A DNA stretch of 64,000 nucleotides from Mycobacteriales bacterium (GCA_036267875.1 DATAVE010000160.1:5420-69419); one strand, 5' to 3'; numbered from the stretch's first letter, positions 19,165 through 53,733 are shown. Program-made: numbers and translations. The notes: generated from the letters alone by a model not told the origin.

Positions 19165-19448
19165 CGACTCTCGATCGAGGACCGGAGGTCGTGCAGCGCG
19201 TCGGTCAGGGCCGCCATCTCGCGCGAACGCTTGGCGCCGTCCTGTCGGCGGGCGGCGACGTTGATGACGACCAACCCGACCATGACCAGTCCGATGCCGG
19301 GAAGGCCCGCGGACAGGACGTAGGGAACCTGCTGCCAGGAGTTGGGCTTGCCCGCGGCTTCTGACCAGCCGATGAGGATCAGCGCGAACCCGGCGAGGGC
19401 CAGCACGATGCCGACGTACGTCGGGATCCGGGACTCTGGCTCCGTCAT
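19161..19448 (-). CDS. small 2-TM membrane protein, member 1' (copy B)
   Basis: Start MTEPESRIPTYVGIVLALAGFALILIGWSE; its ATG overlaps the stop of the upstream gene. About 60% identical to 18140-18469. Confidence 0.5.
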   Translation of the reverse strand: MTEPESRIPTYVGIVLALAGFALILIGWSEAAGKPNSWQQVPYVLSAGLPGIGLVMVGLVVINVAARRQDGAKRSREMAALTDALHDLRSSIESR

Positions 19449-20464
19449 GACTGGTGTCTCCTTGGTGTGGCATCGGATGTGAAGACTCGTACGAAGAAGA
19501 CCGCGCCGAGCAACATCAGCAGCGGCACGATGAACACGACGGGATAGCGGAAGCCGCGGCCGACCGTGGTCGGGTAGGCGACCTCGGTCTGCGGTGCGAT
19601 CTCGGGCGCACCGGCGGGCGGCACCTCGACTGTGGTGGTGCCCGGCAAGGTAACGCCCGGAATCGCTGGGGCCACCGTCGCGCCTGACGGCGTCGGCATC
19701 GGCACGATGGGCGTGCTGCCGCCCGGGCTCACCGATGCGCTGGTCGTGATCAGTGAGTGGATTCTCGTCGTCGGTGTTGCCGTCGTGTGGGCCGCGAAAG
19801 TGACCAGCCACGTCGAGGTCAGGGACTTGTCTGCAGTGCTTGGGCTGGGGATCAAGGCGATCCCGTCGCGCGGGCGACCGATCTCCCATCCCCGCAGGAA
19901 CGGCGTGAGATCGAGGGTGAAGGCGTTGTGCTTCGCGTCGTACTTCAGCGGTGCGTTGACGAAGCAGTCAGTCTTCGGAAGCGCGCCGGTGCCTCCAGAC
20001 GGTGCGTCCGGAAACTTCTGAGTCACCGCGCAAGCCTCGATCTTCGCTGTCGCCGGCGAGATGGTGCCCGCCGTGGGACTGGTGTCGATCGGCAGGACCA
20101 TCTGGCCGTGCGCGTCCGTGCCCTTGTGCACCGCGCTCAGGTCAGGCAGCACATAGGCGCGCTCGGATTCCTGGCCGAGGATGTTGCCGACCCGGATCGA
20201 GTTCAGCGGGGCGAGCGAGAGCAGCTTCGAGACGATCGCGCCGAGCTGCGGGCACAGCGGGATCGACGCGCACTTCGGGATCGGCAACGTGGTGTACCAG
20301 GTCTCGGCCACGTCGGGCACGCCGTTCGTCGAGGCGGGCGGCTGCGCGACGGAAGTGGCGTGGAAAGGGTTGGCACCGATCGACATCGCGGCGGCCGGGG
20401 TCAACGGCAATACGGCGACGCCGACCGCGACTGTGGCGACCGCGATACGTGCGAGGCGGGTCAT
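19445..20464 (-). CDS. secreted Pro/Thr-rich protein with a C-terminal TM anchor (copy B)
   Basis: Start MTRLARIAVATVAVGV overlaps the SBP stop (ATGA). Shares the AETWYTTLP...C..LC block and a C-terminal anchor FIVPLLMLLGAVFFV. Confidence 0.55.
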   Translation of the reverse strand: MTRLARIAVATVAVGVAVLPLTPAAAMSIGANPFHATSVAQPPASTNGVPDVAETWYTTLPIPKCASIPLCPQLGAIVSKLLSLAPLNSIRVGNILGQESERAYVLPDLSAVHKGTDAHGQMVLPIDTSPTAGTISPATAKIEACAVTQKFPDAPSGGTGALPKTDCFVNAPLKYDAKHNAFTLDLTPFLRGWEIGRPRDGIALIPSPSTADKSLTSTWLVTFAAHTTATPTTRIHSLITTSASVSPGGSTPIVPMPTPSGATVAPAIPGVTLPGTTTVEVPPAGAPEIAPQTEVAYPTTVGRGFRYPVVFIVPLLMLLGAVFFVRVFTSDATPRRHQS

Positions 20465-21972
20465 CCGATCGCCTGCTCGCCGGAGGTGTACTGGAAACAC
20501 TTGCAACCTGAGGAGTAGGCACCCATGCGGATGGCGTCGACCCCGTCTGAGCGGTTGGCGGTGTCGACCCCGAACGTCTGATCGGAGTGGTAGGACGAAC
20601 CGACTGAATGTGTCGCGGCGACGAAGGTGCTGCGGGTGAGCGCCTGGCCGGCCGGAATCGCCGCGACGACCGCGTCGAGATAGTCGAACTCATCGCAGAT
20701 CTGGATCGTTCCGGCCTTCTCGTTGGCGGTCGTGATCGGTTGGCCGTGGGTGTGCATGTAGGACAGGCAGGCATTGCCGCCGGGGCGGATGCTGCTCGTA
20801 TCTGCGACATCCTGCGCGGGGATCCAGCCGACGAACTCCGCTCCCGCCAGCTCCCGCGCGGAGATGTTCGAGGCGAGGTCACCCAAGGGCTCGTCACTGG
20901 AAAGGGCGTACTTCGGGTAGTAGCCCTGCGGACCTGCCTCGAGGCCGAAGCCGGCCGAAAGAAAGCCGTTGTTCTCGACGAACATCAGGTTGGTGATGCC
21001 CTCGGAGCGGAAGCGCAGGTCCGCGCCCTCCATCTGCGTGAGCAGCGCGGTGAGGTCACCGGTCGAGGCGACGTAGTGCAGCGCGATCTTGTCCTGAACA
21101 TCGATGTGGCGGGCCCGAAGCTCCGCTTCCAGGACCTTCTCGCCGGCGACGTACGGCGCCGTCTCGTAGTAGAGGATTCCGACCTTCGCGCCCGGTTGGA
21201 ACCAATGGGCTGCCACCAGTCGAGGAACCTCGATCTTCGCGAGCCGATCGAGGCTGATCGAGTTCGGGAAGACGGCTCCGGACAGCGACGCCAGGTCGCT
21301 GTCGGTGTATCCGGTGACGTTGGCGTTGACGATCCCGGCGACGCCACCGCTTAGTGCGCAGCGCAGGAAGTTGTCGGTCATCCCGAAGTCGAACACGACC
21401 TGTACCGGGTGGTCCTGCGTGAACTCGTCGCAGGCGCCCTGCTCGTACGTCGACTGCGAGGTGTTCGGGTTGATGTCGTAGAAGTAGGGCTTGATCGGGT
21501 GGCCGGACAGCCCGCCGGCCTTGTTGATCTTTGCGATCTCCAGGTCAGCGACCGCGCGCCCGTCCGCGGAAGCGAGGCCCTTGCCGATCCCGCTGAGGAC
21601 CGTCGAGCTGGCGGCGGCGTCGAGGTATGGGAACCCGATCGTGATCGGGGTGTGCGCGCTGACGGCCGGTCCGGTCGGCGTTGCCGAGCTAGCGCGCGTG
21701 GGTGAGCTGCCGGCCGCGATGGTCGTTGTGGCGCCTTGGGCGGGCAGCACATTGATCGAAGGGCCTGCACTGGAACCGGCGACGCTCGGAGTGCCCGTCG
21801 TGCTTGCACCGCTGGTTGGCACAGCGACCGTCGTGGGAGTTCCGCCGGCCGTGATCGTCTGGACCTGAGCGTCCTGGGTGCCGACAGCACGGGGCTCGAG
21901 GGTGGACCCGCAGGCGACCAGGGAGAGCATCACGATCGTGCCTACCGCGGCTCGGTGAAGCGAGTGACTCAT
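20461..21972 (-). CDS. lipoprotein, LivK-like substrate-binding protein B1
   Basis: Start MSHSLHR...LSLVACGS overlaps the upstream stop (ATGA). Thr-rich linker, PBP type-I domain with the FTQDH motif. C-terminal CKCFQYTSG. Confidence 0.8.
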   Translation of the reverse strand: MSHSLHRAAVGTIVMLSLVACGSTLEPRAVGTQDAQVQTITAGGTPTTVAVPTSGASTTGTPSVAGSSAGPSINVLPAQGATTTIAAGSSPTRASSATPTGPAVSAHTPITIGFPYLDAAASSTVLSGIGKGLASADGRAVADLEIAKINKAGGLSGHPIKPYFYDINPNTSQSTYEQGACDEFTQDHPVQVVFDFGMTDNFLRCALSGGVAGIVNANVTGYTDSDLASLSGAVFPNSISLDRLAKIEVPRLVAAHWFQPGAKVGILYYETAPYVAGEKVLEAELRARHIDVQDKIALHYVASTGDLTALLTQMEGADLRFRSEGITNLMFVENNGFLSAGFGLEAGPQGYYPKYALSSDEPLGDLASNISARELAGAEFVGWIPAQDVADTSSIRPGGNACLSYMHTHGQPITTANEKAGTIQICDEFDYLDAVVAAIPAGQALTRSTFVAATHSVGSSYHSDQTFGVDTANRSDGVDAIRMGAYSSGCKCFQYTSGEQAIG

Positions 21973-23462
21973 CCGATCGGCTGCGGACCGGAGGTGTACT
22001 TGAAGCACTTGCAGCCTTCGTCGTACGCACCCATCCGAATCGCATCGGCTCCGTCGGAGCGGCTCGAGGTGTTGACGCTCAGCGCGTTGTCCGACTTGAA
22101 CGACGACCCGACAGCGTGGGTCGCCGCGACGAAGGTGCTGCGGGTGAGCGCCTGACCGGCAGGGATCTTCGCGACGACGGCTGCCAGGTAGTCGAACTGC
22201 TCGCAGATCGCGATCGAGCCCGCAATCTCGTTCGGGGTCGACATCGGCTGCCCATGCTGGTGCATGTAGGTCATGCAGGCCTTGCCGCCAGCCGGGATGT
22301 CACTCGTGTCGGGGACATCCTCGGACGGCACCCATCCCACGAACTGGGCGCCCTCGAGCTCGCGGGCGGAGACGTTCGCGTCGACGTTGCCGAGCGGCTC
22401 GTCGCTGGTGAACGCGTACTTCGGGTAGTAGCCCTGAGGTCCCGCCTCCAGCCCGAAGAAGCCCGACAGGAAGGCGTTGGTCTCGACGAACATCATGTTG
22501 GTCACGCCCTCGGTGCGAAAGCGCAGATCTGCACCCTGTGCCTGGGTCAGCAGCGTGGTGAGGTCGCTCGTCGACGCGACCGGGTGCATCGCGATCCGGT
22601 CCTTCACTGCGATGTGGTTGGCGGCGAGGTCGGACTCCAGGTCCTTCTCCGCGGTGATGTACGGCGCGGACTCCTCGTAGAGGATGCCGATCTTGGCGCC
22701 GGGCTGGAACCAGTGCGTCGCGACGAGGCGCTGCACCTCGATCTTGGCGAGCCGGTCCAGGCTGATGCCATCCGGGTAGACCAACCCCGGCAGCGAGGCC
22801 AGGTCGGCCGAGGTGAGCCCAGGCACGCCTGTGTCGATGATTCCGGCGATGCCTCCTGACAACGCACACCGCTGGAAGTTGAGACTCATCCCCGGATCCA
22901 TGTCGATCTGGACCGGGTGGTCCTGGGTGAACTGGTCGCAGGTGCCCTGCTCGTAGGTCGCCTGAGGGGTGTTCGGGTTGATGTCGTAGAAGTACGGCTT
23001 GATCGGATGCCCGCTCAGGCCGCCAGCCTTGTTGATCCGCGTTATCTCGAGCTCGGTGACCTTCAAGGTGTCCGCTGAAGCCAGACCCTTGCCGATCCCG
23101 CTGAGGACGGATGAGCTCGTCGCCGCGTCGATGTAGGGAATGCCGACGGTGATCGGCGTGTGGTCACTCACTGTTGGGGCGCTCGATGTCGAGCCGCCGG
23201 TCGTCGGCTCGCCGCTGGTCGCGATCGTGGGCGTCGCGCCATCGGTAGGGAGTACGTCGACCGACGACGGGGTCGTGCCAGGCGCTGAGGTGGTCGTGAC
23301 GACCGATGGCCCAGTGGCGCTCGTCGGCGTGCCGGCGCCCTGGATCACCTGCACTTGCGAGCCGGATGTGGCGACACCACGAGGCTCGAGTGTGGAGCCG
23401 CAGGCCGCTAGCGAAAGGGCCGCGACCGCGACGAAGACCGGGCCCATTAACCGCCGCGACAT
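21969..23462 (-). CDS. lipoprotein, LivK-like substrate-binding protein B2
   Basis: Preferred start MSRRLMGPVFVAVAALSLAACGS; an alternative GTG lies 24 nt upstream. Same domain. C-terminal CKCFKYTSGPQPIG. Confidence 0.8.
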   Translation of the reverse strand: MSRRLMGPVFVAVAALSLAACGSTLEPRGVATSGSQVQVIQGAGTPTSATGPSVVTTTSAPGTTPSSVDVLPTDGATPTIATSGEPTTGGSTSSAPTVSDHTPITVGIPYIDAATSSSVLSGIGKGLASADTLKVTELEITRINKAGGLSGHPIKPYFYDINPNTPQATYEQGTCDQFTQDHPVQIDMDPGMSLNFQRCALSGGIAGIIDTGVPGLTSADLASLPGLVYPDGISLDRLAKIEVQRLVATHWFQPGAKIGILYEESAPYITAEKDLESDLAANHIAVKDRIAMHPVASTSDLTTLLTQAQGADLRFRTEGVTNMMFVETNAFLSGFFGLEAGPQGYYPKYAFTSDEPLGNVDANVSARELEGAQFVGWVPSEDVPDTSDIPAGGKACMTYMHQHGQPMSTPNEIAGSIAICEQFDYLAAVVAKIPAGQALTRSTFVAATHAVGSSFKSDNALSVNTSSRSDGADAIRMGAYDEGCKCFKYTSGPQPIG

Positions 23463-41903: not shown

Positions 41904-42070
41904 TTCCGGATATCGCTCGAGACTGGCGAAACCGTAACGAGTCCGCCAGCGCGTTGGCTGAACGGAACCTGTGCGATTCCTGGGAATCGCACAGTCCTGT
42001 TACGAGGTCGCTCGCCAGGTCGTTCTGCTCTGCGAACGGCCCTCACTCCCGAACGATGGAAGGACCCCAG

Positions 42071-42688
42071 ATGAAGGCACGACTCTCGACCGGACTGCGC
42101 GTCGCCGCGTGGTCGGCGAGCTCGCTGCTCGTGGTCGGCGCGGCCGCGGGAACCGCGTCCGCTGCTACCCACCACGCGAAGCACGTGAAGAAGCACTCGA
42201 CAGCCAAGGACACGACGACCGGCACTACGCCCACCACCGGGACCGGCACGACCGGTACCGGTACCGCGCGGCCGACTCCGCCGCAGATGCTGCACGGCAC
42301 CGAGACGGTCGAGACCACGGACGGCACGTTCGAGGTCTACGCGAATCAGGTCGGCACGGTTTCTGCGGTCACCGCGACGTCGATCACCGTCGTGAGCGCG
42401 GACAAGTTCTCTGCGACGTACGTCATCGACTCCTCGACCAAGATCGTCAAGAACGGCGCCACCGCGGACGCCACCGGCGTCGCGACCGGCGACACCGTCA
42501 TGGTTCAGGCCGAGCAGGACGACGCGGCGCTCACCGCGATTGGCATCTTCGACGGCAAGCCCACTGCGGGCCAGGGCGGTCAGGGCGGTCCTGGTCAAGG
42601 TGGTCCGGGTGGACCCGGCGGGCACGCCGGTCCGCCGCCCGCGGGTCAGGGCCCGCAAGGCGCGTCCGAGAGCGGCAGCGACAGCTGA
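42071..42688 (+). CDS. secreted Thr/Gly-rich protein of unknown function
   Basis: Start MKARLSTG with a signal peptide. Thr-rich linker and C-terminal GQGGQGGPGQGGPGGPGG low-complexity tail. Confidence 0.45.
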   Translation: MKARLSTGLRVAAWSASSLLVVGAAAGTASAATHHAKHVKKHSTAKDTTTGTTPTTGTGTTGTGTARPTPPQMLHGTETVETTDGTFEVYANQVGTVSAVTATSITVVSADKFSATYVIDSSTKIVKNGATADATGVATGDTVMVQAEQDDAALTAIGIFDGKPTAGQGGQGGPGQGGPGGPGGHAGPPPAGQGPQGASESGSDS

Positions 42689-45519: not shown

Positions 45520-45719
45520 CTGACAACAGTCTCATTTCGCGTGCCTGCGACTTGATTGCGGTAGGTATGGCCCGAAATGCCCACGTGGAAATGAGACGTA
45601 AGGCTGATGAACCGCGCTGGCTCCTGCACGTCTAATGAGACGTAGGGATCGCTGCGACTCACAGGTAGCTCACAGCGACGGTTAAGGCCAGAATCAGTGG
45701 CCGCGATCAGAGTGGAGAC

Positions 45720-46229
45720 ATGGACGCGACGAGCCGGGCGATTGCCGCCGCGCAACGTGACCGAGTGCGTCGCCGGGTGCGGCGAATCACCGCTGTCACC
45801 GGCGTCGGTGCTGCGCTCGGCACCGGCGCGATCGTGGTTGCGTTGGACGTCCCGGCCGCTAGCTCGGCCGCGGCCGACACCGGTACGACGGTGTCGTCCA
45901 CGACTCCGACGACGACCTCGACGACCTCGACGACACCCCCGCAGTCGCTGACGAGCACCAAGAGCGCCGGCCACGTGCGCCACAAGAAGACGACGCAGAA
46001 GGCGGTCGGGTCCTCGTCGACGCCATCGAGCGCCGGCACGTCGACGACAACGACAGTCACGAGTCCGACGGCGAAGCCGACTCACAAGACGACGACGAGC
46101 ACCCCGACGACTGCCCCGGCGGTTGTTTCCACGCCGACGCCTGTGACGACTACGACGGTCACGACGCCGACCCAGCCGACGTACACCTATCCGCAGCAGC
46201 CGACCGGTGGCACGAGCGGCGGCAGCTGA
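45720..46229 (+). CDS. secreted/membrane Thr-Pro-rich low-complexity protein
   Basis: One hydrophobic segment, then a long TTPTTTSTTSTTPP tract. ATGA-type overlap with the downstream ApbE gene. Confidence 0.4.
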   Translation: MDATSRAIAAAQRDRVRRRVRRITAVTGVGAALGTGAIVVALDVPAASSAAADTGTTVSSTTPTTTSTTSTTPPQSLTSTKSAGHVRHKKTTQKAVGSSSTPSSAGTSTTTTVTSPTAKPTHKTTTSTPTTAPAVVSTPTPVTTTTVTTPTQPTYTYPQQPTGGTSGGS

Positions 46230-47203
46230 TGACCGCTCTGACTCCGACGCGGCGCGACCTGCATCGCGCCTACGCCGCGCAGCACGCCTACGGCATCGCG
46301 GACTGGCCAGCGCTGGGTACGACGGCACAGCTCGTCGTCACCGACGCATCCGCGTTGCACGACGCATGCGCCGCCGTCGAACAGGTGCTGCTCGACATCG
46401 ACCTAGCGGCGAGCAGGTTCCGGCCCGACTCCGAGCTGGCGTTGCTCAACGCTGCGAGCGGTGACTGGGTGCCGGTCAGCCCGCTGCTCGCGTGCGCGCT
46501 GCGGATTGCGATCGACGCTGCCGACTGGACCGACGGATTGGTCGATCCGACGGTCGGCGGCGTCCTCGTCGACCACGGCTATGACAGAACCTTCACGGCG
46601 GTCGCGCCCGATGGTCCGCTGGTGATCGGCATCCGGGACGTGCCAGGCCGGGCTGCGATCGAGCTCGACGAAGACACGGGTCGGGCACGCGTCCGAGACG
46701 GTGCGATGGTCGACCTCGGCGCGACAGCCAAGGCACTGGCCGCCGACCTCGCGTCGACAGCGGCACTCGAGGTCGCCGGTGGTGGCGTGCTGGTCAGCCT
46801 TGGCGGGGACATCGGCGTCGGCGGTGACGCGCCGGACGGTGGTTGGCCGATCACGGTGACCGACCGCAGCGACTTGTCGCTGCCGGCGGACGACGGCACG
46901 ACCGAGTACGTCGCGATCAGCGAGGGCGCGCTCGCCACGTCGAGCACCCGCGCCCGCAGGTGGCGTCGCGGCGGTCACGAGCTGCACCACCTCATCGACC
47001 CGCGTTCCGGTGGCCCGGCCAACGGCCCGTGGCGGACGGTCAGTGTCACGGCGAAGACGTGCACCCTCGCCAACACCGCGTCGACGGCGGCGATCATTGC
47101 TGGGCACGAGGCCGAGGGCTGGCTCAGTGCCCGCGGATTGGCCGCGCGCCTGGTCGCCCATGACGGCGCGGTTGTTCACGTCGGCGACTGGCCCGAATCA
47201 TGA
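46229..47203 (+). CDS. apbE: FAD:protein FMN transferase (ApbE family)
   Basis: ApbE-like layout (GTTAQLVV...; DPTVGG; SLGGDIGV). Overlapping start/stop with its neighbours. Confidence 0.75.
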   Translation: MTALTPTRRDLHRAYAAQHAYGIADWPALGTTAQLVVTDASALHDACAAVEQVLLDIDLAASRFRPDSELALLNAASGDWVPVSPLLACALRIAIDAADWTDGLVDPTVGGVLVDHGYDRTFTAVAPDGPLVIGIRDVPGRAAIELDEDTGRARVRDGAMVDLGATAKALAADLASTAALEVAGGGVLVSLGGDIGVGGDAPDGGWPITVTDRSDLSLPADDGTTEYVAISEGALATSSTRARRWRRGGHELHHLIDPRSGGPANGPWRTVSVTAKTCTLANTASTAAIIAGHEAEGWLSARGLAARLVAHDGAVVHVGDWPES

Positions 47204-47799
47204 CGACCCTGGCCGCATCGTTCACCTCCTCATCGCAGCTCTGGTATCTGACCCGCGCCACCGCGATCGTCGCGTTCGTCCTGATGACGGTTTCGTTCGG
47301 ACTGGGGCTCGCATCTACGCAGCGGCTCCGGGAGATGCGCTACTGGCCGCGGTTCGCGACGCAGCACCTGCACCGAAACGTCGCGCTGCTCGCCCTTGGC
47401 TTCACGCTGCTGCACATCGTGACGACCATGATCGACACCTTCGTCCACGTCGGCTGGTGGTCGGTGGCGGTGCCGTTCGTGTCGCACTACCGAACCCTCG
47501 GGATGGCGATGGGCACGTTGTCCTTCGACGCCGTCGTACTCGTCATCGTGACCAGCCTGCTTCGCGATCGGCTCTCGCTGCGCACCTGGCGGGTCATCCA
47601 CTGGACGACGTACGCGCTCTGGCCGCTTGCGTTCGGGCATTTCCTGCTCACCGGTACCGATGCGGCTCACGGCCGGTGGGGTCTCTACCTCGCGCTCGGC
47701 TCGCTCGGCGTGCTCTCGGTCGCGACTGCCGCGCGCTGGCTGACCAGTGAGCGACGCAACTCACTCACCGCCGTACCTCGCGTGGCAGGCGCTCGATGA
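47200..47799 (+). CDS. ferric-reductase-like transmembrane (heme b-binding, FRD/MsrQ-like) domain protein
   Basis: 199 aa, 5-6 TM segments, with conserved His pairs in the helices (HLHRNVALL...LLHIV; HWTTY...GHFLL). Confidence 0.65.
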   Translation: MTTLAASFTSSSQLWYLTRATAIVAFVLMTVSFGLGLASTQRLREMRYWPRFATQHLHRNVALLALGFTLLHIVTTMIDTFVHVGWWSVAVPFVSHYRTLGMAMGTLSFDAVVLVIVTSLLRDRLSLRTWRVIHWTTYALWPLAFGHFLLTGTDAAHGRWGLYLALGSLGVLSVATAARWLTSERRNSLTAVPRVAGAR

Positions 47800-49076
47800 C
47801 CGTGGCGATCGAAGAGCCTCGGACGACGTCGGGCTCGTCTGGTCGGCTGCTGTCCGGGTTGACGACAGACAGCTCGGTCGGCCTCGCGCGCCACCACGAA
47901 GTCTGGGGTCCGCTGCCTGGGCTTCGTGCTACTGCGCTGATCGATGAGATCGAATCGGCCGGGCTGCTCGGCCGTGGTGGTGCCGGCTTCCCGGTCGCGC
48001 GCAAGCTGTCGGCCGTTGCGGCGGGGAAGGGTCCGGCGGTCGTTGTCGCCAACGGCTGCGAGGGCGAGCCGGCCAGCGCGAAGGACACCATGTTGCTGGC
48101 GCGGGTCCCGCACCTGGTGCTCGACGGCATTCAGCTCGCCGCTCGCGCGGTCGGCGCGGATCGCGCCTACCTGGCCGTGCACTCCGGCTCGTCGGCCATT
48201 CCCTATCTGCGTGCCGCTCTTGCCGAGCGTGGCCGCGAGGCGGTTGGCGTGACGCTCGGGCCCCTTCCGCGGCGGTACGTCGCAAGTGAGGAGTCAGCGA
48301 TCGTCAGCTGGCTCAATGGTGGCGATGCCCTGCCGGCGTATACGCCGCCGCGACCGTTCGAGCGCGGGGTCAATCGTCGCCCGACGCTGATCAGCAACGT
48401 CGAGTCGCTCGCCCAGCTCGCGACGATCGCGCGGTACGGCGCCGAGTGGTACCGCGGCATCGGCGACCGCTGGGAGCCGGGCACGATGCTGGTCACCGTC
48501 AGCGGACACCGTGTAGATGGACGCAGCGTCGAGCGGCGCGTTGCGGAGGTGGCGACCGGTACGACGATCGGCCGCATCTTCACCGCCGCAGGTCTGTCGC
48601 TTCGCGGCTCGGACGCGGTGCTGGTCGGCGGCTACTTCGGCAGCTGGCTGCCGGCGGCGCAGGCCGCGCGACTGCCGCTGACTCATGCCGCGCTCCGCGG
48701 TGCAGGCGCAGCGCTTGGCGCCGGGGTGCTCGTAGCGCTGCCCCCGGGTAGCTGCGGGATCGCCGAGACCGCGCGAGTCGCGTCATACCTTGCCGCCAAC
48801 AGCGCACGGCAGTGCGGGCCATGCCTCAACGGGCTGCCTGCGATCGCGGGTGCGATGAACGCGCTCGCCGCCGGTGCGTGGGACGACCGGACCTGGCCGG
48901 CACTGAGTCGATGGCTCGACGTCGTACCTGGGCGGGGAGCATGCCGGCATCCCGACGGTGCGGTGCGGCTCGTCGCAAGCGCGTTGTCGACCTTCGCCGC
49001 CGACGTCGAACGGCATCGGGACGGCCAGCCGTGTGACGGCATCACGGCGGTGCCGTTCCTACCGGTGCCGCGATGA
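47796..49076 (+). CDS. NuoF-like (complex I 51-kDa family) NAD(H)/FMN/4Fe-4S oxidoreductase
   Basis: GRGGAGFP FMN/NADH motif, VVANGCEGEPASAKD, and a C-terminal Cys cluster ARQCGPCLNGLP. Confidence 0.75.
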   Translation: MTVAIEEPRTTSGSSGRLLSGLTTDSSVGLARHHEVWGPLPGLRATALIDEIESAGLLGRGGAGFPVARKLSAVAAGKGPAVVVANGCEGEPASAKDTMLLARVPHLVLDGIQLAARAVGADRAYLAVHSGSSAIPYLRAALAERGREAVGVTLGPLPRRYVASEESAIVSWLNGGDALPAYTPPRPFERGVNRRPTLISNVESLAQLATIARYGAEWYRGIGDRWEPGTMLVTVSGHRVDGRSVERRVAEVATGTTIGRIFTAAGLSLRGSDAVLVGGYFGSWLPAAQAARLPLTHAALRGAGAALGAGVLVALPPGSCGIAETARVASYLAANSARQCGPCLNGLPAIAGAMNALAAGAWDDRTWPALSRWLDVVPGRGACRHPDGAVRLVASALSTFAADVERHRDGQPCDGITAVPFLPVPR

Positions 49077-49106
49077 ACCCGGTGTCGAAGTGAACACGGT
49101 GTCGAA

Positions 49107-49301
49107 GTGAAGGTGGAGCTGAATCCCATCCTGTGCACTGCGCATGGGCTCTGCGCGGATCTGTTGCCCGAGCGGATCGCGCTCGATGAGTGGGGCTACC
49201 CGATTCTCGAGCCGGGCGAGCTGCCCGACGATGTCGTTGCGCACGCCCGCCGCGCGGCCCGCGCCTGCCCCACTCGCGCGTTGGTCCTGTCCCGCGGATA
49301 G
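49107..49301 (+). CDS. small ferredoxin
   Basis: 64 aa with C-x-x-x-C...CP motifs (ILCTAHGLCADLLP ... ACPTRAL). GTG start. Confidence 0.55.
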   Translation: MKVELNPILCTAHGLCADLLPERIALDEWGYPILEPGELPDDVVAHARRAARACPTRALVLSRG

Positions 49302-49350: not shown

Positions 49351-50178
49351 ATGCGTAGATGCTCCCTTCTTGCCTCAACTGTCGCCTCGGTTGGTGTTTG
49401 TGTGGCTCTCGCCGCAACCAGCGCACCGATTGCGGTGGCCAGCGGTGTGACGCAAGGAAGGCTCGTCAAGACCAGCGCCCATGAGCTGCTGCCTACCCGC
49501 GGCGGGAGCGCGACCAGCCTCAACTGGGGCGGCTACGCCGTCACTCCGGCAAGCCACGACGTGACGGCGGTGACATCGACGTTCGTCGTACCGAAGGCAG
49601 GTCTGATCCTGCCGGGCTTTGCCGCGAGCTGGGCCGGCATCGGCGGCTACAACTCCTCAGACCTGATCCAGGCGGGGGTCACCGAGAACTCGCTGCCGAC
49701 GAACCCGATCAGCGGCCCGCAGTACGGCGCTTGGTACGAGATCCTTCCAGCCTCCGAGACGCCCGTCAGCAACTGCGCCGGCAACAGCGCGTGCACCGTC
49801 AAGCCGGGCGACTCGGTGACGGTCAACATCCACCAGACCTCGCCGGGTCAGTGGAACATCTCGATCGCCGACCCGACAGAAGGCTGGACGTTCGACAAGG
49901 CGCAGGCGTACGCGTCGACCGAGTCCTCCGCCGAATGGATCCTCGAGGCGCCGACGGTCATCGCGCAGACGATCCTCGCCGGCGTCGGCACGGCGCACTT
50001 CGGCCCGACCTCGACGTTTACCACGGCCAGTGGCGGCACCCAGACGATCGCGCAGGGCGACCCGACCTCGATCGCGCTGTCGCCCGGCCTGATCAACGAG
50101 GCGACCCCGTCCGCGCTCGCCGCAGACGGCCAGTCCTTCAACGTCTGCGCCTACGCCCAAAGCTGCGCCACCCCCTAA
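49351..50178 (+). CDS. secreted peptidase of the G1 (eqolisin / scytalidoglutamic peptidase) family
   Basis: Signal peptide, then G1 hallmarks NWGGYA, SWAGIGG and QAGV...WYE. Confidence 0.65.
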   Translation: MRRCSLLASTVASVGVCVALAATSAPIAVASGVTQGRLVKTSAHELLPTRGGSATSLNWGGYAVTPASHDVTAVTSTFVVPKAGLILPGFAASWAGIGGYNSSDLIQAGVTENSLPTNPISGPQYGAWYEILPASETPVSNCAGNSACTVKPGDSVTVNIHQTSPGQWNISIADPTEGWTFDKAQAYASTESSAEWILEAPTVIAQTILAGVGTAHFGPTSTFTTASGGTQTIAQGDPTSIALSPGLINEATPSALAADGQSFNVCAYAQSCATP

Positions 50179-50221: not shown

Positions 50222-51946
50222 TCAGCCTTCGGAGGCTGTGCCGGCGAGATGGCGAGCCATCCTCAGCACTACCGCCATGATCGTCAGAGTTGGGTTATTC
50301 GCTCCGGCGGTGGCGAAGACGCCGCCGTCGTGCACGTAGACGTTTTCGGTGGTGTGCACCCGGCCCCATTCATCGACTACTGAGGTCCTCTCGTCGGTGC
50401 CCATCTGCATCCCGCCGAGGACGTGCCGGGTCAGCGGCAGCGAGGCGGTGGCGCCCATGAGCGGCGTGTTCGCCGGGACGGCGGCGGACACCGTCGCTCC
50501 GGCCGCCTTCAGGACTGCGGTGATGAACGGGATGTAGAACTCCTGCGCCACCGTTTCGTGCTTGCCGGGCGCGTAGGTGATTCGCGGTACGGGGAAGCCG
50601 TGCCGGTCCTTCACCTTCGGGTCGAGGGTGACGTTGTTCGACAGGTACGGCAGGTCGTGGCCGAGCATCTGGATGCCGGCGATCCGGTCGCGCAGCAGGG
50701 AGGTGCGCATCAGCTCCTTGAAGGTCCGGCCGAAGGGCTGTTCGGGCAAGACCGCGCTGAGGATGTACTGGTAGAACTGCGCCTCCGCAAGCACCTCCTC
50801 GCTGCCGCCGAGCTCGCACAGCCCGCCGCGGATGTAGGGCAGACCCTGCAGCTTCGCGAACGCCTTCGCGCCGATGAAGTCCGGGTCGGCGAAGTCCTCG
50901 AGGCAGTGCGTCTCGGCGCCCCAGCTCTTGTAGGCGTGCAGCCGCTCGTCGAGGAACAACCCGAAGCCCGACGTGAAGTAGTGGAACATCAGGCGCTTGC
51001 CGATCCGGTCATGCGGGTCGGGTAGCCCAGACATCAGCGCGAGCCGCGCGCTCTCGATGCCAGACGCCGCAAGGATCACGACGTCTCCGCGCTCGACCCC
51101 GCGTCGGCCGTGCTGGTCGATCCACGCCAACCCCGTCGCGCGCCGACCCTTCATCTCGACCTTGTGCACCATCGTCTCCGAGCGCAGCTCGACGCGACCG
51201 GTCAGCAGAGCGCGGTGCAACAGGTCGAGGGCGCTGCCTCGCGCCGACGTCGGGCAGCCGTACGCGTCGCAGAACCCGCAGTTGTTGCAGATCGGTCGAC
51301 CGTTGTACGGCTGCGAGTTGATCGCGTGCGGGAATGGATATGGGTGCATGCCCAGGGCCTTGGCGCCATCGGAAACGAGCTTGGACGCGCGTTGCGGCGG
51401 ACCAGGCGGCATCGGGTAGCCCTTGTTCCGCGGCGCATGCTTGAGCACCGGGTCCTTCGGCATCGCGGCCATGTCGCCCTGGATGCCGATCGTCTCTTCG
51501 AGCTCGTCGTAGAGATGCGAGAGAGCGGAGTACTCGAACGGCCAGTCCGCGACGTCCGCACCTGGTTGCGGACCCAGCATCGACAGCTGCTTGAAGTCGA
51601 TGTCCCAGAAGCGCGGCATGGCCGCGCCGTAGTGGATGGTGCCGCCGCCGACCGTGACCGGAAGCTCGTTGACCGGTCCGACGTAGTAGCCGCTCTTCTG
51701 GCTGGCGCTGGTGCGGAAGGTGCGCGGGTACGCCGTCGGGTCCGGCTGCTCGAAGTTGCGGGTCAGCTTGAGGTTGTCGTTGGAGAAGACCGTCTTCGGC
51801 GGCCACTCCTTGCCGAGACCGGTGAAGTAGTTCGGGCCCTTCTCCAGCATGACGACGTGCCACCCGGCCTCGGCCAGAGTCATCGCGGTCACGCTCGCGC
51901 CGGCACCTGAGCCGGCGATGACGGCTTTACGCATCGACTCAGCCAC
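50222..51946 (-). CDS. GMC-family FAD-dependent oxidoreductase
   Basis: N-terminal FAD motif AVIAGSGAGASVTAM..LAEAGWHVVMLEKG and a C-terminal GMC region. Confidence 0.85.
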   Translation of the reverse strand: MAESMRKAVIAGSGAGASVTAMTLAEAGWHVVMLEKGPNYFTGLGKEWPPKTVFSNDNLKLTRNFEQPDPTAYPRTFRTSASQKSGYYVGPVNELPVTVGGGTIHYGAAMPRFWDIDFKQLSMLGPQPGADVADWPFEYSALSHLYDELEETIGIQGDMAAMPKDPVLKHAPRNKGYPMPPGPPQRASKLVSDGAKALGMHPYPFPHAINSQPYNGRPICNNCGFCDAYGCPTSARGSALDLLHRALLTGRVELRSETMVHKVEMKGRRATGLAWIDQHGRRGVERGDVVILAASGIESARLALMSGLPDPHDRIGKRLMFHYFTSGFGLFLDERLHAYKSWGAETHCLEDFADPDFIGAKAFAKLQGLPYIRGGLCELGGSEEVLAEAQFYQYILSAVLPEQPFGRTFKELMRTSLLRDRIAGIQMLGHDLPYLSNNVTLDPKVKDRHGFPVPRITYAPGKHETVAQEFYIPFITAVLKAAGATVSAAVPANTPLMGATASLPLTRHVLGGMQMGTDERTSVVDEWGRVHTTENVYVHDGGVFATAGANNPTLTIMAVVLRMARHLAGTASEG

Positions 51947-52721
51947 GACGCCAGACTCCGCTCGCGTAGGTCTGCGCGATCTTCTCGAAGTCGCCCAGCA
52001 GCATGGACACGATCCCCGTCGGATCGACGATGTCGACGTCGATCTGTGCCATCTCCTTGGCGGTGTAGCCGCGAGGCTGGCTATCGCCCGGGTAGCCGAT
52101 CTCCTTCCAACCGGCCAAGCCCTTGTTCCCGCCGTACTCGGGATTGGAGTACATCCCCTCGATCGTGTGGCCGAACATCACGGTCGTGAACGGCGCGACG
52201 CCGGACTTGGCGAGGATCAGGTCCTGCTGGATCGTCGACACCTTCGTGAAGTCGCCGTTCGCGTGCGCGTCGAGCGACTTCACCCCGGCGCGATAGGTCT
52301 TCTGCAGCTCCTTGACCCGCGCTCGCCACGCCCCTGCCTGCGCCCGGTCGGGCTTCACGAAGGTCTTCATGTGGTCGGGGCCGCCCTTGGTGTGACGGTT
52401 GCTCCATGGCCCGCCCGCGAACAGCTTCGGCGTCGAGAACGAGAACATCGCCAGCAGTGTGTCGATGTAGCGCACCACATCGCACTCATGCGCGCCCGGA
52501 TGGCCGATCTCGAGGAGGTCGTCCTCCGGCCCGGGCGCGATCCGCCGAGTGGCGGCGTCGACGACCGCCGCCTCGTGCGCCGAGAAGAACTTGTACGCCG
52601 ATCCCCCTGCTTTTTGAGAAGCCGCCGCCGCGGCCTGTGACTCGGCGAGCAGATCGGGGACGAGTGCGGCGAGCGGCAGCAGAGCCGTCGTACCGAGGAC
52701 GCGTCGGCGGGTGATGTTCAT
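51939..52721 (-). CDS. gluconate 2-dehydrogenase subunit 3-family protein with a Tat signal
   Basis: Start MNITRRRVLGTTALLPLAAL (twin-Arg). 8-nt overlap with the downstream GMC gene. The upstream extension in the ORF track is rejected. Confidence 0.65.
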   Translation of the reverse strand: MNITRRRVLGTTALLPLAALVPDLLAESQAAAAASQKAGGSAYKFFSAHEAAVVDAATRRIAPGPEDDLLEIGHPGAHECDVVRYIDTLLAMFSFSTPKLFAGGPWSNRHTKGGPDHMKTFVKPDRAQAGAWRARVKELQKTYRAGVKSLDAHANGDFTKVSTIQQDLILAKSGVAPFTTVMFGHTIEGMYSNPEYGGNKGLAGWKEIGYPGDSQPRGYTAKEMAQIDVDIVDPTGIVSMLLGDFEKIAQTYASGVWRRG

Positions 52722-52743
52722 GGGCCTCAGCCTGACACGCGTG

Positions 52744-53733
52744 TCAGCCTTTGAAGGTGCTGGCGCCCCGATCGCCGTACGGGTCGTCGCGCTCGGCAAC
52801 CGCCTGGCGGAAGCCGACCGAAGCGGCGCGTTGCTGGAACGCGTAGCCCTCGCGGGTGTGCCGGGCGATCCCGTCAAAGACGGTCGACACCATTGTGGAG
52901 TTCGCGACTCCCGACGCGAGCAATGAGCTGTTGAGTGCGAGCTTCGCCATGATCAGCTGGTTGATCGGCATCCGGGCGATCCGCTCGAGCAGGTTCTCGG
53001 TGCGCGCGTCCAGGTCCGCAGCCGTTGGCGCCTCGATCGCGAGCCCCCATTCCAACGCCTCGGCACCGGAGATCGTGTCGCCGGTGAACAGCAGACGTTT
53101 GGCGCGCTGGTCGCCGATCCGGTGCGCCCACATCCCGGCGGCGGGGATGCCCCAGACCCGGGTCGGCGGGTAGCCGATCTTGGTGTCGTCCGCGGCGATG
53201 ATCTGGTCGGCGTAGAGCGCGATGTCCGTGCCACCCGCGACACAGAAGCCGTGCAGCTTCGCGACCGTCGGCTTGTTGGAATGAAGCAGCGAGGAGAAGC
53301 CGCGGTTGAAGCGGCTCATCATCGCGTAGTCGACCATCGGGTCCCAGGTCGCGTTGGGGTCGTGGTTGGCCACCTGTACGCCGGAGGCCAGCACGGTCCC
53401 TGACCGCCGCGCAGACGGCGACCGACCGCTCTCGTCCAGCCGCTCCGCGAATGCCGCGAGGTCGTAGCCGCCACAGAATCCCTTGCCGCGACCCGACACA
53501 CAGATCACGTGCACCGCCGGATCGAGGTCCGCGCGCTCGACCGCGTCGGCGAGCTCGATCGGGGTGTCGTAGGTGATCGCGTTGCCCTGATCGGGCCGGT
53601 TGAAGGTGATTCGCGCGATCCGTCCGGTGACCTCGTAGGTCATCGTGCGATAGCCGGGATGCTCGGCGGGCTCGCCCGCGAGATCGGCAGTCGGAGAGTC
53701 GTCGTACCACTCGGCAGGTCGGTCTTCAGTCAC
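52744..53733 (-). CDS. crotonase-superfamily protein, MenB / DHNA-CoA-synthase-like, with an internal insertion; start uncertain (alternative ATG at 53643)
   Basis: ITFNRPDQGNA ... GKGFCGGYDL motifs. The N-terminal extension (AEWYDD...TMTYEV) resembles that of MenB. Confidence 0.6.
   Translation of the reverse strand: MTEDRPAEWYDDSPTADLAGEPAEHPGYRTMTYEVTGRIARITFNRPDQGNAITYDTPIELADAVERADLDPAVHVICVSGRGKGFCGGYDLAAFAERLDESGRSPSARRSGTVLASGVQVANHDPNATWDPMVDYAMMSRFNRGFSSLLHSNKPTVAKLHGFCVAGGTDIALYADQIIAADDTKIGYPPTRVWGIPAAGMWAHRIGDQRAKRLLFTGDTISGAEALEWGLAIEAPTAADLDARTENLLERIARMPINQLIMAKLALNSSLLASGVANSTMVSTVFDGIARHTREGYAFQQRAASVGFRQAVAERDDPYGDRGASTFKG

Follow-up and report, generated by a model that had tools for sequence, protein, structure and literature searches.

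What an apbE gene and a membrane cytochrome do together in an operon that encodes no familiar flavin-carrying protein, and where the electrons would go, are the questions raised by positions 45720–49301 of a 64,000-nucleotide stretch of DNA from a Mycobacteriales bacterium (GCA_036267875.1, DATAVE010000160.1:5420-69419), referred to throughout as the window. Five co-directional genes lie there head to tail, as follows:

45720–46229, + strand, a Thr-rich protein of 169 amino acids with no Pfam or NCBIfam match, here called the tail protein
46229–47203, + strand, ApbE, a predicted FAD:protein FMN transferase of 324 amino acids (PF02424; FAD, flavin adenine dinucleotide; FMN, flavin mononucleotide)
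47200–47799, + strand, an MsrQ-like/Ferric_reduct membrane cytochrome of 199 amino acids (PF01794)
47796–49076, + strand, a NuoF-like soluble flavoprotein of 426 amino acids (PF01512 and PF10589)
49107–49301, + strand, a small single-cluster ferredoxin of 64 amino acids (Fer4_15, PF13459)

All of the genes that the first-pass annotation had assigned to this interval are present on the + strand, and its proposal that a cytoplasmic pair of NuoF-like protein and ferredoxin is joined to a membrane cytochrome and ApbE holds up well, this arrangement matching a published class. The operon is very probably a trans-membrane electron-transfer module of the 'MsrQ-like' flavinylation-associated type, reported mostly from Actinobacteria by Méheust et al. 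2021 (eLife, PMC8238504). Because this operon type has been published already, the headline of the first-pass annotation is not new, and its interpretation as a whole is partly supported. What appears to be undescribed within the literature searched is the family of tail proteins as a likely acceptor, and the consistent lack of an export signal on the accompanying ApbE. The chances are about even that the operon encodes a multi-component conduit of the NOX/MsrQ type in which an FMN at the end of the tail protein is the outer acceptor.

The first four genes overlap by 1, 4 and 4 nt (TGATG, ATGA and ATGA), and are taken to be translationally coupled because their start and stop codons overlap. 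A GGAG Shine–Dalgarno-like sequence lies 6–7 nt 5′ of the tail-gene ATG at 45720, and a thiolase-like gene diverges upstream, leaving an intergenic region of 200 bp (45520–45719). No riboswitch or other Rfam RNA family was detected in this region, nor was a sigma-70-type promoter, scans for promoters and terminators being uninformative at the high G+C content of the window (64–70%).

Comparison with relatives agrees with the earlier supposition that the genes form one co-conserved operon. Alignment of NuoF-like homologues yielded 80 loci from species-representative genomes, which with three others (L001–L003) give 83 loci of 13 kb (L001–L083); the counts of gene order reported here cover these loci, and the window proteins were used as phmmer queries against all open reading frames (ORFs) of the 83 loci. 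The closest homologues are found in metagenome-assembled genomes (MAGs) of uncultured Mycobacteriales and Frankiales. The gene order is kept in about 60–70 of the 83 loci, the carriers including Actinomycetota (Streptomyces, Nocardia, Kitasatospora, Actinoplanes, Mycolicibacterium, Klenkia, Acidothermaceae, Acidimicrobiia, Gaiellales and Solirubrobacterales), Chloroflexota and others; Pfam-annotated neighbourhoods present the same order. Cultured carriers include Nocardia seriolae NBRC 15557, Streptomyces spp., Phytohabitans suffuscus, Klenkia taihuensis and Mycolicibacterium sp. 120266. In 81 of 83 loci the NuoF-like gene is immediately followed by the ferredoxin gene, and among the 76 loci with sufficient upstream DNA the MsrQ-like gene is directly upstream of the NuoF-like gene in at least 62, which is an undercount because some start estimates failed. 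In the same 76 loci, apbE is directly upstream of the MsrQ-like gene in 57, and tail-gene orthologues occupy the matching operon position in about 67. Chance would not bring these genes together nearly so often. The tail and MsrQ-like genes correspond almost one to one, and the tail gene is missing from the seven loci without an MsrQ-like gene, which carry only the NuoF-like and ferredoxin genes. A reciprocal test with a profile built from the N-terminal 50 residues of the tail protein alone gives a similar picture, as its full-length matches again end in SGGS, and on their contigs the tail gene adjoins a Ferric_reduct gene with apbE, a two-component system or NuoF-like and ferredoxin genes nearby. 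In about 50 of 83 loci (e.g. L001 3785–5670, L013 2422–4559, L044 7336–9299 and L074 7433–9417) the operon is bordered by genes for a HisKA/HATPase_c histidine kinase and a response regulator of the OmpR type, suggesting dedicated regulation; none is adjacent in the window.

Two variants of the operon were seen in passing. At L086 (4975–6803) a tail gene and a 177-amino-acid Ferric_reduct gene lie beside a divergent apbE and a two-component system, with no NuoF-like or ferredoxin gene. In a subfamily without apbE, the ferredoxin gene is followed by a gene for a membrane protein of about 200 amino acids (L009 7449–8105; L013 7464–8072; L087 3142–3765) with several histidines in its helices and no Pfam match, which might be a second cytochrome.

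The proteins of the cytoplasmic side are readily recognized. The NuoF-like protein matches PF01512 (108.8 bits) and PF10589 (51.9 bits), aligns to Thermus Nqo1 (2fug) over residues 47–400, and keeps the FMN loop GRGGAGFP (47970–47993) as well as the E-x-E-P and Y…EE[ST]A elements. Three of the four N3 cysteines are retained (C340, C343 and C383), the first being replaced by Ala337, and C320 and C413 are further invariant cysteines across the family. It scores only 180 bits against the NuoF equivalog TIGR01959, far below the cut-off of 559, and no NuoE gene is present in the operon, so that we regard it as a paralogue and not as a subunit of complex I. The ferredoxin matches PF13459 with 50.4 bits (cut-off 22.4; E=3.7e-13), and has the ligand pattern C-x2-H-x2-C…C-P, in the sequence CTAHGLC…CP. 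Conserved TGTT and TGTD strings in the NuoF-like and MsrQ-like proteins were considered as flavinylation sites and rejected, as they do not fit the motif.

The membrane component scores 34.3 bits against PF01794 (cut-off 28), and its homologues are annotated at source as 'sulfoxide reductase heme-binding subunit YedZ'. Mapping of the heme-ligand histidines, which the first-pass annotation had suggested, finds four that are invariant in an alignment of 42 homologues, with the spacings H-x13-H and H-x12-H:

47371–47373, + strand, H58, candidate heme ligand
47413–47415, + strand, H72, candidate heme ligand
47599–47601, + strand, H134, candidate heme ligand
47638–47640, + strand, H147, candidate heme ligand

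These spacings correspond to the bis-heme signature of the NOX/FRE proteins, and we propose the four histidines as the heme ligands. A fifth, H157, is nearly invariant and lies in the predicted outer loop TGTDAAHGRWG. A sequence search of the protein against the PDB gave no match, and a fold search was therefore needed; an AlphaFold2 model (pLDDT 82.5, pTM 0.77) has five long helices, in place of the six transmembrane helices by which FRD proteins are defined, and Foldseek ranks SpNOX, STEAP2, STEAP1 and DUOX1 first among PDB entries, with probability 1.0. Our reading of the charge distribution is that the N-terminus is outside and that loops 1 and 3 and the C-terminus are inside, in which case H58 and H134 would bind an inner heme, and H72 and H147 an outer one. 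The window protein is a short form with five transmembrane helices, and we note that many MsrQ-like genes encode long forms of 350–390 amino acids (L011 4895–5956, L025 4838–5965, L061 4845–6014, and in L066, L078, L080, L020, L031 and L056), with a sixth transmembrane helix, a conserved GPLxxGWAxRAGTP segment and a predicted extracytoplasmic domain of about 130–170 residues without a Pfam match.

ApbE is well conserved, scoring 152 bits against PF02424 (cut-off 25.6; E=2.5e-44), aligning over about 275 residues to TM1553 (1vrm) and to the Treponema pallidum flavin transferase (4xdt), and keeping the DLGATAK, GGD, ATS and HHLIDP motifs, the last at 46985–47002; it is predicted to transfer flavin to Ser or Thr residues of proteins. 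Its location is less conventional. The first-pass annotation had placed the enzyme outside the membrane, and this placement is not supported: inspection reveals neither a signal peptide nor a lipobox, the first 28 residues (MTALTPTRRDLHRAYAAQHAYGIADWPA) contain no hydrophobic stretch, and an in-frame stop is followed by no possible start codon earlier than the one used, leaving no room for an upstream extension. In about 60 related loci only 10–25 residues separate the ApbE domain from a start codon that touches or overlaps the gene before it, again with no hydrophobic segment, and the in-frame sequence further upstream is an Arg-rich, out-of-frame read-through of that gene; the more distant ApbE copies in L014 and L069 are likewise signal-less. 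Because it has no export signal, the enzyme is predicted to be cytoplasmic, a topology that the first-pass annotation had itself listed as counting against its interpretation.

The tail protein belongs to none of the known ApbE substrate families (FMN_bind, NqrB/RnfD, DUF2271, DUF3570, Flavodoxin_4 and FMN_red), and its homologues have no precomputed Pfam domain. Two features stand out in the window protein:

45795–45845, + strand, predicted hydrophobic helix, residues 26–42 (VTGVGAALGTGAIVVAL), a candidate signal anchor or signal-peptide h-region
46212–46226, + strand, C-terminal T-S-G-G-S motif, a candidate ApbE flavinylation site with Ser169 as the proposed FMN acceptor

The N-terminus is Arg-rich (RDRVRRRVRRIT) and is followed by the single Gly/Ala-rich helix; because the positive charges precede the helix, the protein is predicted to be N-in and C-out. 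A Thr/Ser/Pro-rich linker of about 120 amino acids leads to the C-terminus. The same architecture is shared by a set of 69 operon-linked tail proteins that includes those from loci examined by hand, with an Arg-rich N-terminal motif (RDxGxRRxRxxT), a helix rich in small residues, a linker of 33–176 residues (66% Ala, Thr, Ser or Pro) and a conserved end. A profile search of 1.84 billion representative proteins (E≤1e-3) found 192 clusters of the family at 50% identity, in Actinomycetota, Chloroflexota and relatives from soil and peat. The tail protein of L075 has a lipobox, and several others show A-x-A after the helix. Export by the twin-arginine (Tat) pathway was considered as a rule for the family and is not well supported: an RR pair is common and not invariant, and RDxGxRRxRxxT does not fit S-R-R-x-F-L-K.

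In some operons the tail gene is present twice, in front of apbE and again behind the ferredoxin gene (duplicate or displaced genes are at L084 5893–6324 and 9579–9938, L085 6051–6311 and 9578–9997, L003 2607–3044, and L030 8468–9259), and the ends in the two-tail operons are of the SGGS type (VAGSGGS, VASSGGS, VTHSGGS and VSSSGGSGH). A gene for a PMT_2/YkcB_C-type glycosyltransferase is directly upstream of a tail gene in L084 (3832–5787), and another is about 5 kb from the operon in L002 (13468–15287). These neighbours could reflect O-glycosylation of the Ser/Thr-rich linker, or coincidence.

The first-pass annotation held that no acceptor with a motif of the [ST]GA[ST] type is encoded in the operon, and this is probably wrong, since the tail protein ends in a conserved [ST]G[GA]S. 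Several observations bear on the conservation of this end. First, the low-complexity bodies of the tail proteins of the window, L002 and Acidothermaceae L001 are wholly different, and their ends are shared (…TGGTSGGS, …GGTSGGS and …VVTSGGS, respectively). Secondly, an exact [ST]G[GA]S end is found in 44 of the 69 operon-linked orthologues, and SGGS is, jointly with RRRR (28 each), the commonest C-terminal tetrapeptide among the 7,596 ORFs of the loci; 44 of the 48 ORFs there that end in [ST]G[GA][ST] are operon-linked tail genes. Thirdly, when operon tails are pooled with those from the profile search, 133 non-redundant ends are distributed as SGGS (106), SGAS (14), TGAS (7), TGGS (4) and SGGT (2), with the consensus L-x-P-P-x-Q-x-P-x6-P-P-V-[VA]-x-S-G-[GA]-S-COOH. 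In this pool 98% of the tails finish with Ser and 100% have Gly at position −2, and at position −1 Gly accounts for 84% and Ala for 16%, so that 21 of the 133 have an exact [S/T]GA[S/T] (SGAS or TGAS). The codons at the four motif positions vary widely, including all Gly codons and both Ser codon classes, which argues for selection at the protein level. An origin as a nucleotide-level artefact of the apbE ribosome-binding site was rejected on the same grounds, and because operons without apbE, or with the tail gene at another place, still have the motif.

The motif also tolerates rearrangement of its surroundings. It is kept with one to three extra residues after it (L064, L067, L080, L061 and L085), internally before a 25-residue extension (L045 and L047), and where the tail gene follows the ferredoxin gene or occurs twice (L030, L041, L044, L065, L084, L085 and L003). 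At L022 (2551–3345) the MsrQ-like protein itself has a sixth transmembrane helix and then a Ser/Thr-rich extension ending in DDSGGSG, a motif that is predicted to be extracytoplasmic because the extension follows that helix. The canonical seven-residue ApbE motif D-x-x-[ST]-G-A-[ST] occurs in only five ORFs across the loci; two of these are Streptomyces tail proteins (L023 and L032), which end in D-S-T-S-G-A-S.

Other candidate substrates are scarce. A search for FMN-binding-domain proteins carrying the motif, as the first-pass annotation had recommended, came back empty for both the window and the loci, and no FMN_bind or other motif-bearing substrate is present in the Pfam-annotated neighbourhoods of the loci or in the window, where the [ST]GA[ST] matches are in ABC transporters, short-chain dehydrogenases/reductases (SDRs) or low-complexity linkers. 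Elsewhere in the window, two adjacent genes for exported proteins (19445–20506 and 20461–22008, both − strand) have no Pfam match, one product having a lipobox and the other a C-terminal transmembrane helix; these contain SGAT, SGAS and D-A-P-S-G-G-T strings in Ser/Thr-rich linkers, probably by chance in low-complexity sequence.

There are precedents for modification at such a site. With seven-residue tags, ApbE is most effective at the ends of proteins; it accepts Ser and is little affected by a D-to-A substitution (reviewed in PMC12052999). In FMN_red proteins, modification by ApbE has been confirmed on C-terminal extensions that are unstructured (PMC11334425); a tail-type substrate was not found in the literature searched. 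The odds that the tail protein is flavinylated are roughly even.

The conduit would then operate as follows. In the cytoplasm, the NuoF-like flavoprotein would oxidise NAD(P)H through its FMN and Fe-S cluster and pass electrons to the small ferredoxin, which would reduce the inner heme (H58/H134) of the five-helix cytochrome. Electrons would cross the membrane to the outer heme (H72/H147), and from there reach an FMN joined by a phosphoester bond to the last Ser of the tail protein. The tail protein itself would be single-pass or secreted and intrinsically disordered, its end acting as a natural 'flavin-tag' on which the co-encoded ApbE installs the flavin. We speculate that ApbE most likely acts in the cytoplasm, with FAD at hand there, and modifies the C-terminus before its translocation; this order is proposed because ApbE is predicted to be cytoplasmic and the site extracytoplasmic, because the C-terminus emerges last from the ribosome, and because the apbE start overlaps the tail-gene stop. 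The tethered flavin could pass electrons to acceptors within the cell wall or outside it, among which Fe(III), quinones, humics and O2 are guesses prompted by the environments of the MAGs and by the behaviour of FRD proteins elsewhere. Thus the idea advanced in the first-pass annotation, that electrons cross the membrane to a flavinylated acceptor, survives, and it is the topology of the flavinylation step that must be rethought.

A number of observations weigh against flavinylation of the tail protein. There is a conflict of topology, as the enzyme is predicted to be cytoplasmic and its site extracytoplasmic, and we found no experimental precedent for the export of an already flavinylated tail; the signal-peptide and topology calls on which the conflict depends come from manual inspection of hydrophobicity and charge, and not from SignalP or DeepTMHMM. 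The window motif is S-G-G-S rather than S-G-A-[ST], and compared with D-x-x-[ST]-G-A-[ST] its last seven residues, G-G-T-S-G-G-S, have Gly for Ala and no Asp; the conserved Asp at −6 is missing from most tails, and the ends are degenerate in some subfamilies (ISRGS in mycobacteria, and TTSSGSHSGG or …GGG, SSGS and TGSS). About eight operons, such as those of L009, L011, L013, L019, L020 and L031, have tail and MsrQ-like genes and no adjacent apbE, and an apbE elsewhere in the genome is demonstrated only for Acidothermaceae B102, the sole complete genome among them, in which the apbE-less copy (L030) is accompanied by a second operon copy that contains apbE (L001).

These points lend weight to the alternative that survives best, which we consider unlikely though by no means negligible: that the conduit is the same and the tail protein is not flavinylated, being instead a structural or regulatory subunit of the cytochrome, with a membrane anchor and a wall-spanning, probably O-glycosylated stalk whose conserved C-terminal peptide docks on the outer face of the cytochrome or on a wall component, with ApbE serving an unlinked substrate or a non-canonical site. 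Such a role would explain why the tail gene is associated with the MsrQ-like gene and not with apbE, being present without apbE and, in L086, without NuoF-like and ferredoxin genes, and would require no meeting of a cytoplasmic ApbE with a tail outside. It would also suit the deviation of most tails from D-x-x-[ST]-G-A-[ST], the length of the conserved segment, which at about 22 residues (L-x-P-P-x-Q-x-P…P-P-V-V) exceeds a four-residue motif as expected for a docking peptide, and the PMT_2 gene that adjoins the tail gene in L084. However, no other candidate substrate is encoded in any locus examined, and in most loci the translation of apbE is coupled to that of the tail gene. Moreover, exact canonical TGAS, SGAS and DxxSGAS sequences occur at the same position in several lineages, and the invariant residue is the very Ser/Thr that would bear the flavin.

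An improbable alternative is that ApbE acts on a cytoplasmic component, or serves as a FAD pyrophosphatase or a supplier of FMN for the NuoF-like protein; flavinylation would in that case be intracellular, and the tail motif unrelated. The T. pallidum homologue recovered in the PDB search was first described as a FAD pyrophosphatase. The ApbE proteins of the family all lack a signal, and soluble reductases are known to be modified by cytosolic ApbEs, e.g. in Klebsiella pneumoniae (PMC12052999). Against this, no conserved [ST]G[AG][ST] site is present in the NuoF-like protein, the ferredoxin or the cytoplasmic loops of the MsrQ-like protein, and the ill-fitting TGTT/TGTD strings include a GTT that is found in genuine NuoF as well. 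To our knowledge, the NuoF site binds FMN non-covalently in all solved homologues. Finally, that the MsrQ-like protein acts like E. coli MsrQ, delivering electrons to an unlinked MsrP-type molybdoenzyme or exchanging them with the quinone pool while its neighbours are only loosely related, is the least probable explanation, for although its homologues carry the YedZ annotation and L086 has tail and MsrQ-like genes without NuoF-like and ferredoxin genes, no MsrP or molybdoenzyme gene is present in any locus with annotated genes, and the tight 4-nt overlaps and an order conserved across phyla argue for one functional unit.

The usual view of ApbE flavinylation is that the substrate must have a folded flavin-binding domain, and that both the enzyme and its FAD must be exported. 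A disordered, membrane-tethered family whose sole conserved extracytoplasmic feature is S-G-[GA]-S, encoded beside apbE, would be a minimal natural substrate. It is a tentative suggestion that the tail proteins constitute a new, domain-less class of ApbE substrates, a 'flavin on a string' that is flavinylated at its C-terminus in the cytoplasm and then exported. If so, flavinylation before export would remove the need for a FAD exporter, and the tethered flavin, reduced at the outer heme, would shuttle electrons through the thick envelope of Actinomycetota or Chloroflexota, so that flavin-based electron transfer could span a thick wall with no need of carriers that contain several hemes or domains. 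Some of the 670 'orphan apbE' genomes reported by Méheust et al. 2021 could be explained in this way. The proposal would also pose the question whether a tail that bears a cofactor can be exported, and would offer natural sequences to flavin-tagging technology.

The genes around the operon appear to be separate from it. The G1 peptidase gene (Peptidase_A4, with a signal peptide; 49351–50178) lies directly after the ferredoxin gene, and was considered as a partner and rejected: among L001–L083 homologues are found only in the nearest relative, L002, with another 4 kb away in L086, and this restricted recurrence places it outside the system, in keeping with the first-pass annotation, which had seen no obvious partner in it. 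Just downstream and convergent with it are genes for an unrelated pair of redox enzymes, a GMC-family FAD oxidoreductase (50222–51946, − strand) and a gluconate 2-dehydrogenase subunit-3-like protein (51939–52877, − strand). A secreted protein encoded at 41954–42688 (+ strand), Gly/Pro-rich at its C-terminus, matches DUF5666 weakly, with a score at the Pfam cut-off or slightly under it; the closest relative has a syntenic counterpart (L002 2261–2827), which ends in …PDAPSGGSGESS.

Among known systems, E. coli MsrQ (YedZ) and the cytosolic flavin reductase Fre reportedly form a two-component NOX-like system (Juillan-Binard 2017, as cited in PMC8238504), and the window operon resembles these in having a stand-alone FRD heme membrane protein that would be reduced by a separate cytoplasmic NAD(P)H-dependent flavoprotein. 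It differs in that the donor is a NuoF-like Fe-S flavoprotein with a ferredoxin rather than Fre, there is no MsrP partner, five transmembrane helices are predicted rather than six, and ApbE and the tail protein are additional. With NOX, DUOX, STEAP and SpNOX the cytochrome shares the predicted fold and the bis-His pairs on two helices with x13/x12 spacing, whereas a fused FAD/NADPH dehydrogenase domain is absent and electron input is split over two proteins.

The clusters of Méheust et al. 2021 (PMC8238504) were defined by a PF01794 gene within five genes of apbE, FMN_bind, DUF2271 or DUF3570, and in the window apbE directly precedes the PF01794 gene. In 31 MsrQ-like clusters a NuoF-like (PF10589) protein was identified as the probable NAD(P)H entry, and the window operon has the corresponding protein as its predicted NAD(P)H partner; the proposed flow there is from the cytosol to an extracytosolic flavin, and the clusters 'typically' include an FMN-binding-domain protein. 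The window operon departs from them in three respects: their members were selected for a signal peptide on ApbE or on the substrate and the window ApbE is signal-less; genes of the FMN_bind, DUF2271 and DUF3570 families are absent; and the candidate substrate, a tail protein with no recognized domain, is undescribed in the literature searched, in which no characterised member of this cluster type was found. The Listeria system of extracellular electron transfer, comprising Ndh2, EetA/B, PplA and FmnB with the FmnA/EetB FAD exporter (PMC9973259), offers a likeness in its Gram-positive-type route from cytosolic NADH to a surface-tethered, ApbE-flavinylated carrier, although its quinone step, FMN_bind lipoprotein and exported ApbE (FmnB) are all missing here, and no FAD exporter of its type is encoded in the operon.

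The proposed flavin site itself has two counterparts, the tails of FMN_red proteins (Huang et al. 2024, PMC11334425) and the engineered seven-residue 'flavin-tag' (Tong et al. 2021, as described in the review PMC12052999). The FMN_red tail folds back on its own flavin-binding domain, whereas here the whole mature protein would be disordered and tethered to the membrane; the flavin-tag is artificial, and the commonest motif of the window family is SGGS rather than SGA[ST]. What all three would have in common is a short motif on a disordered terminus that is recognized without a dedicated FMN-binding fold.

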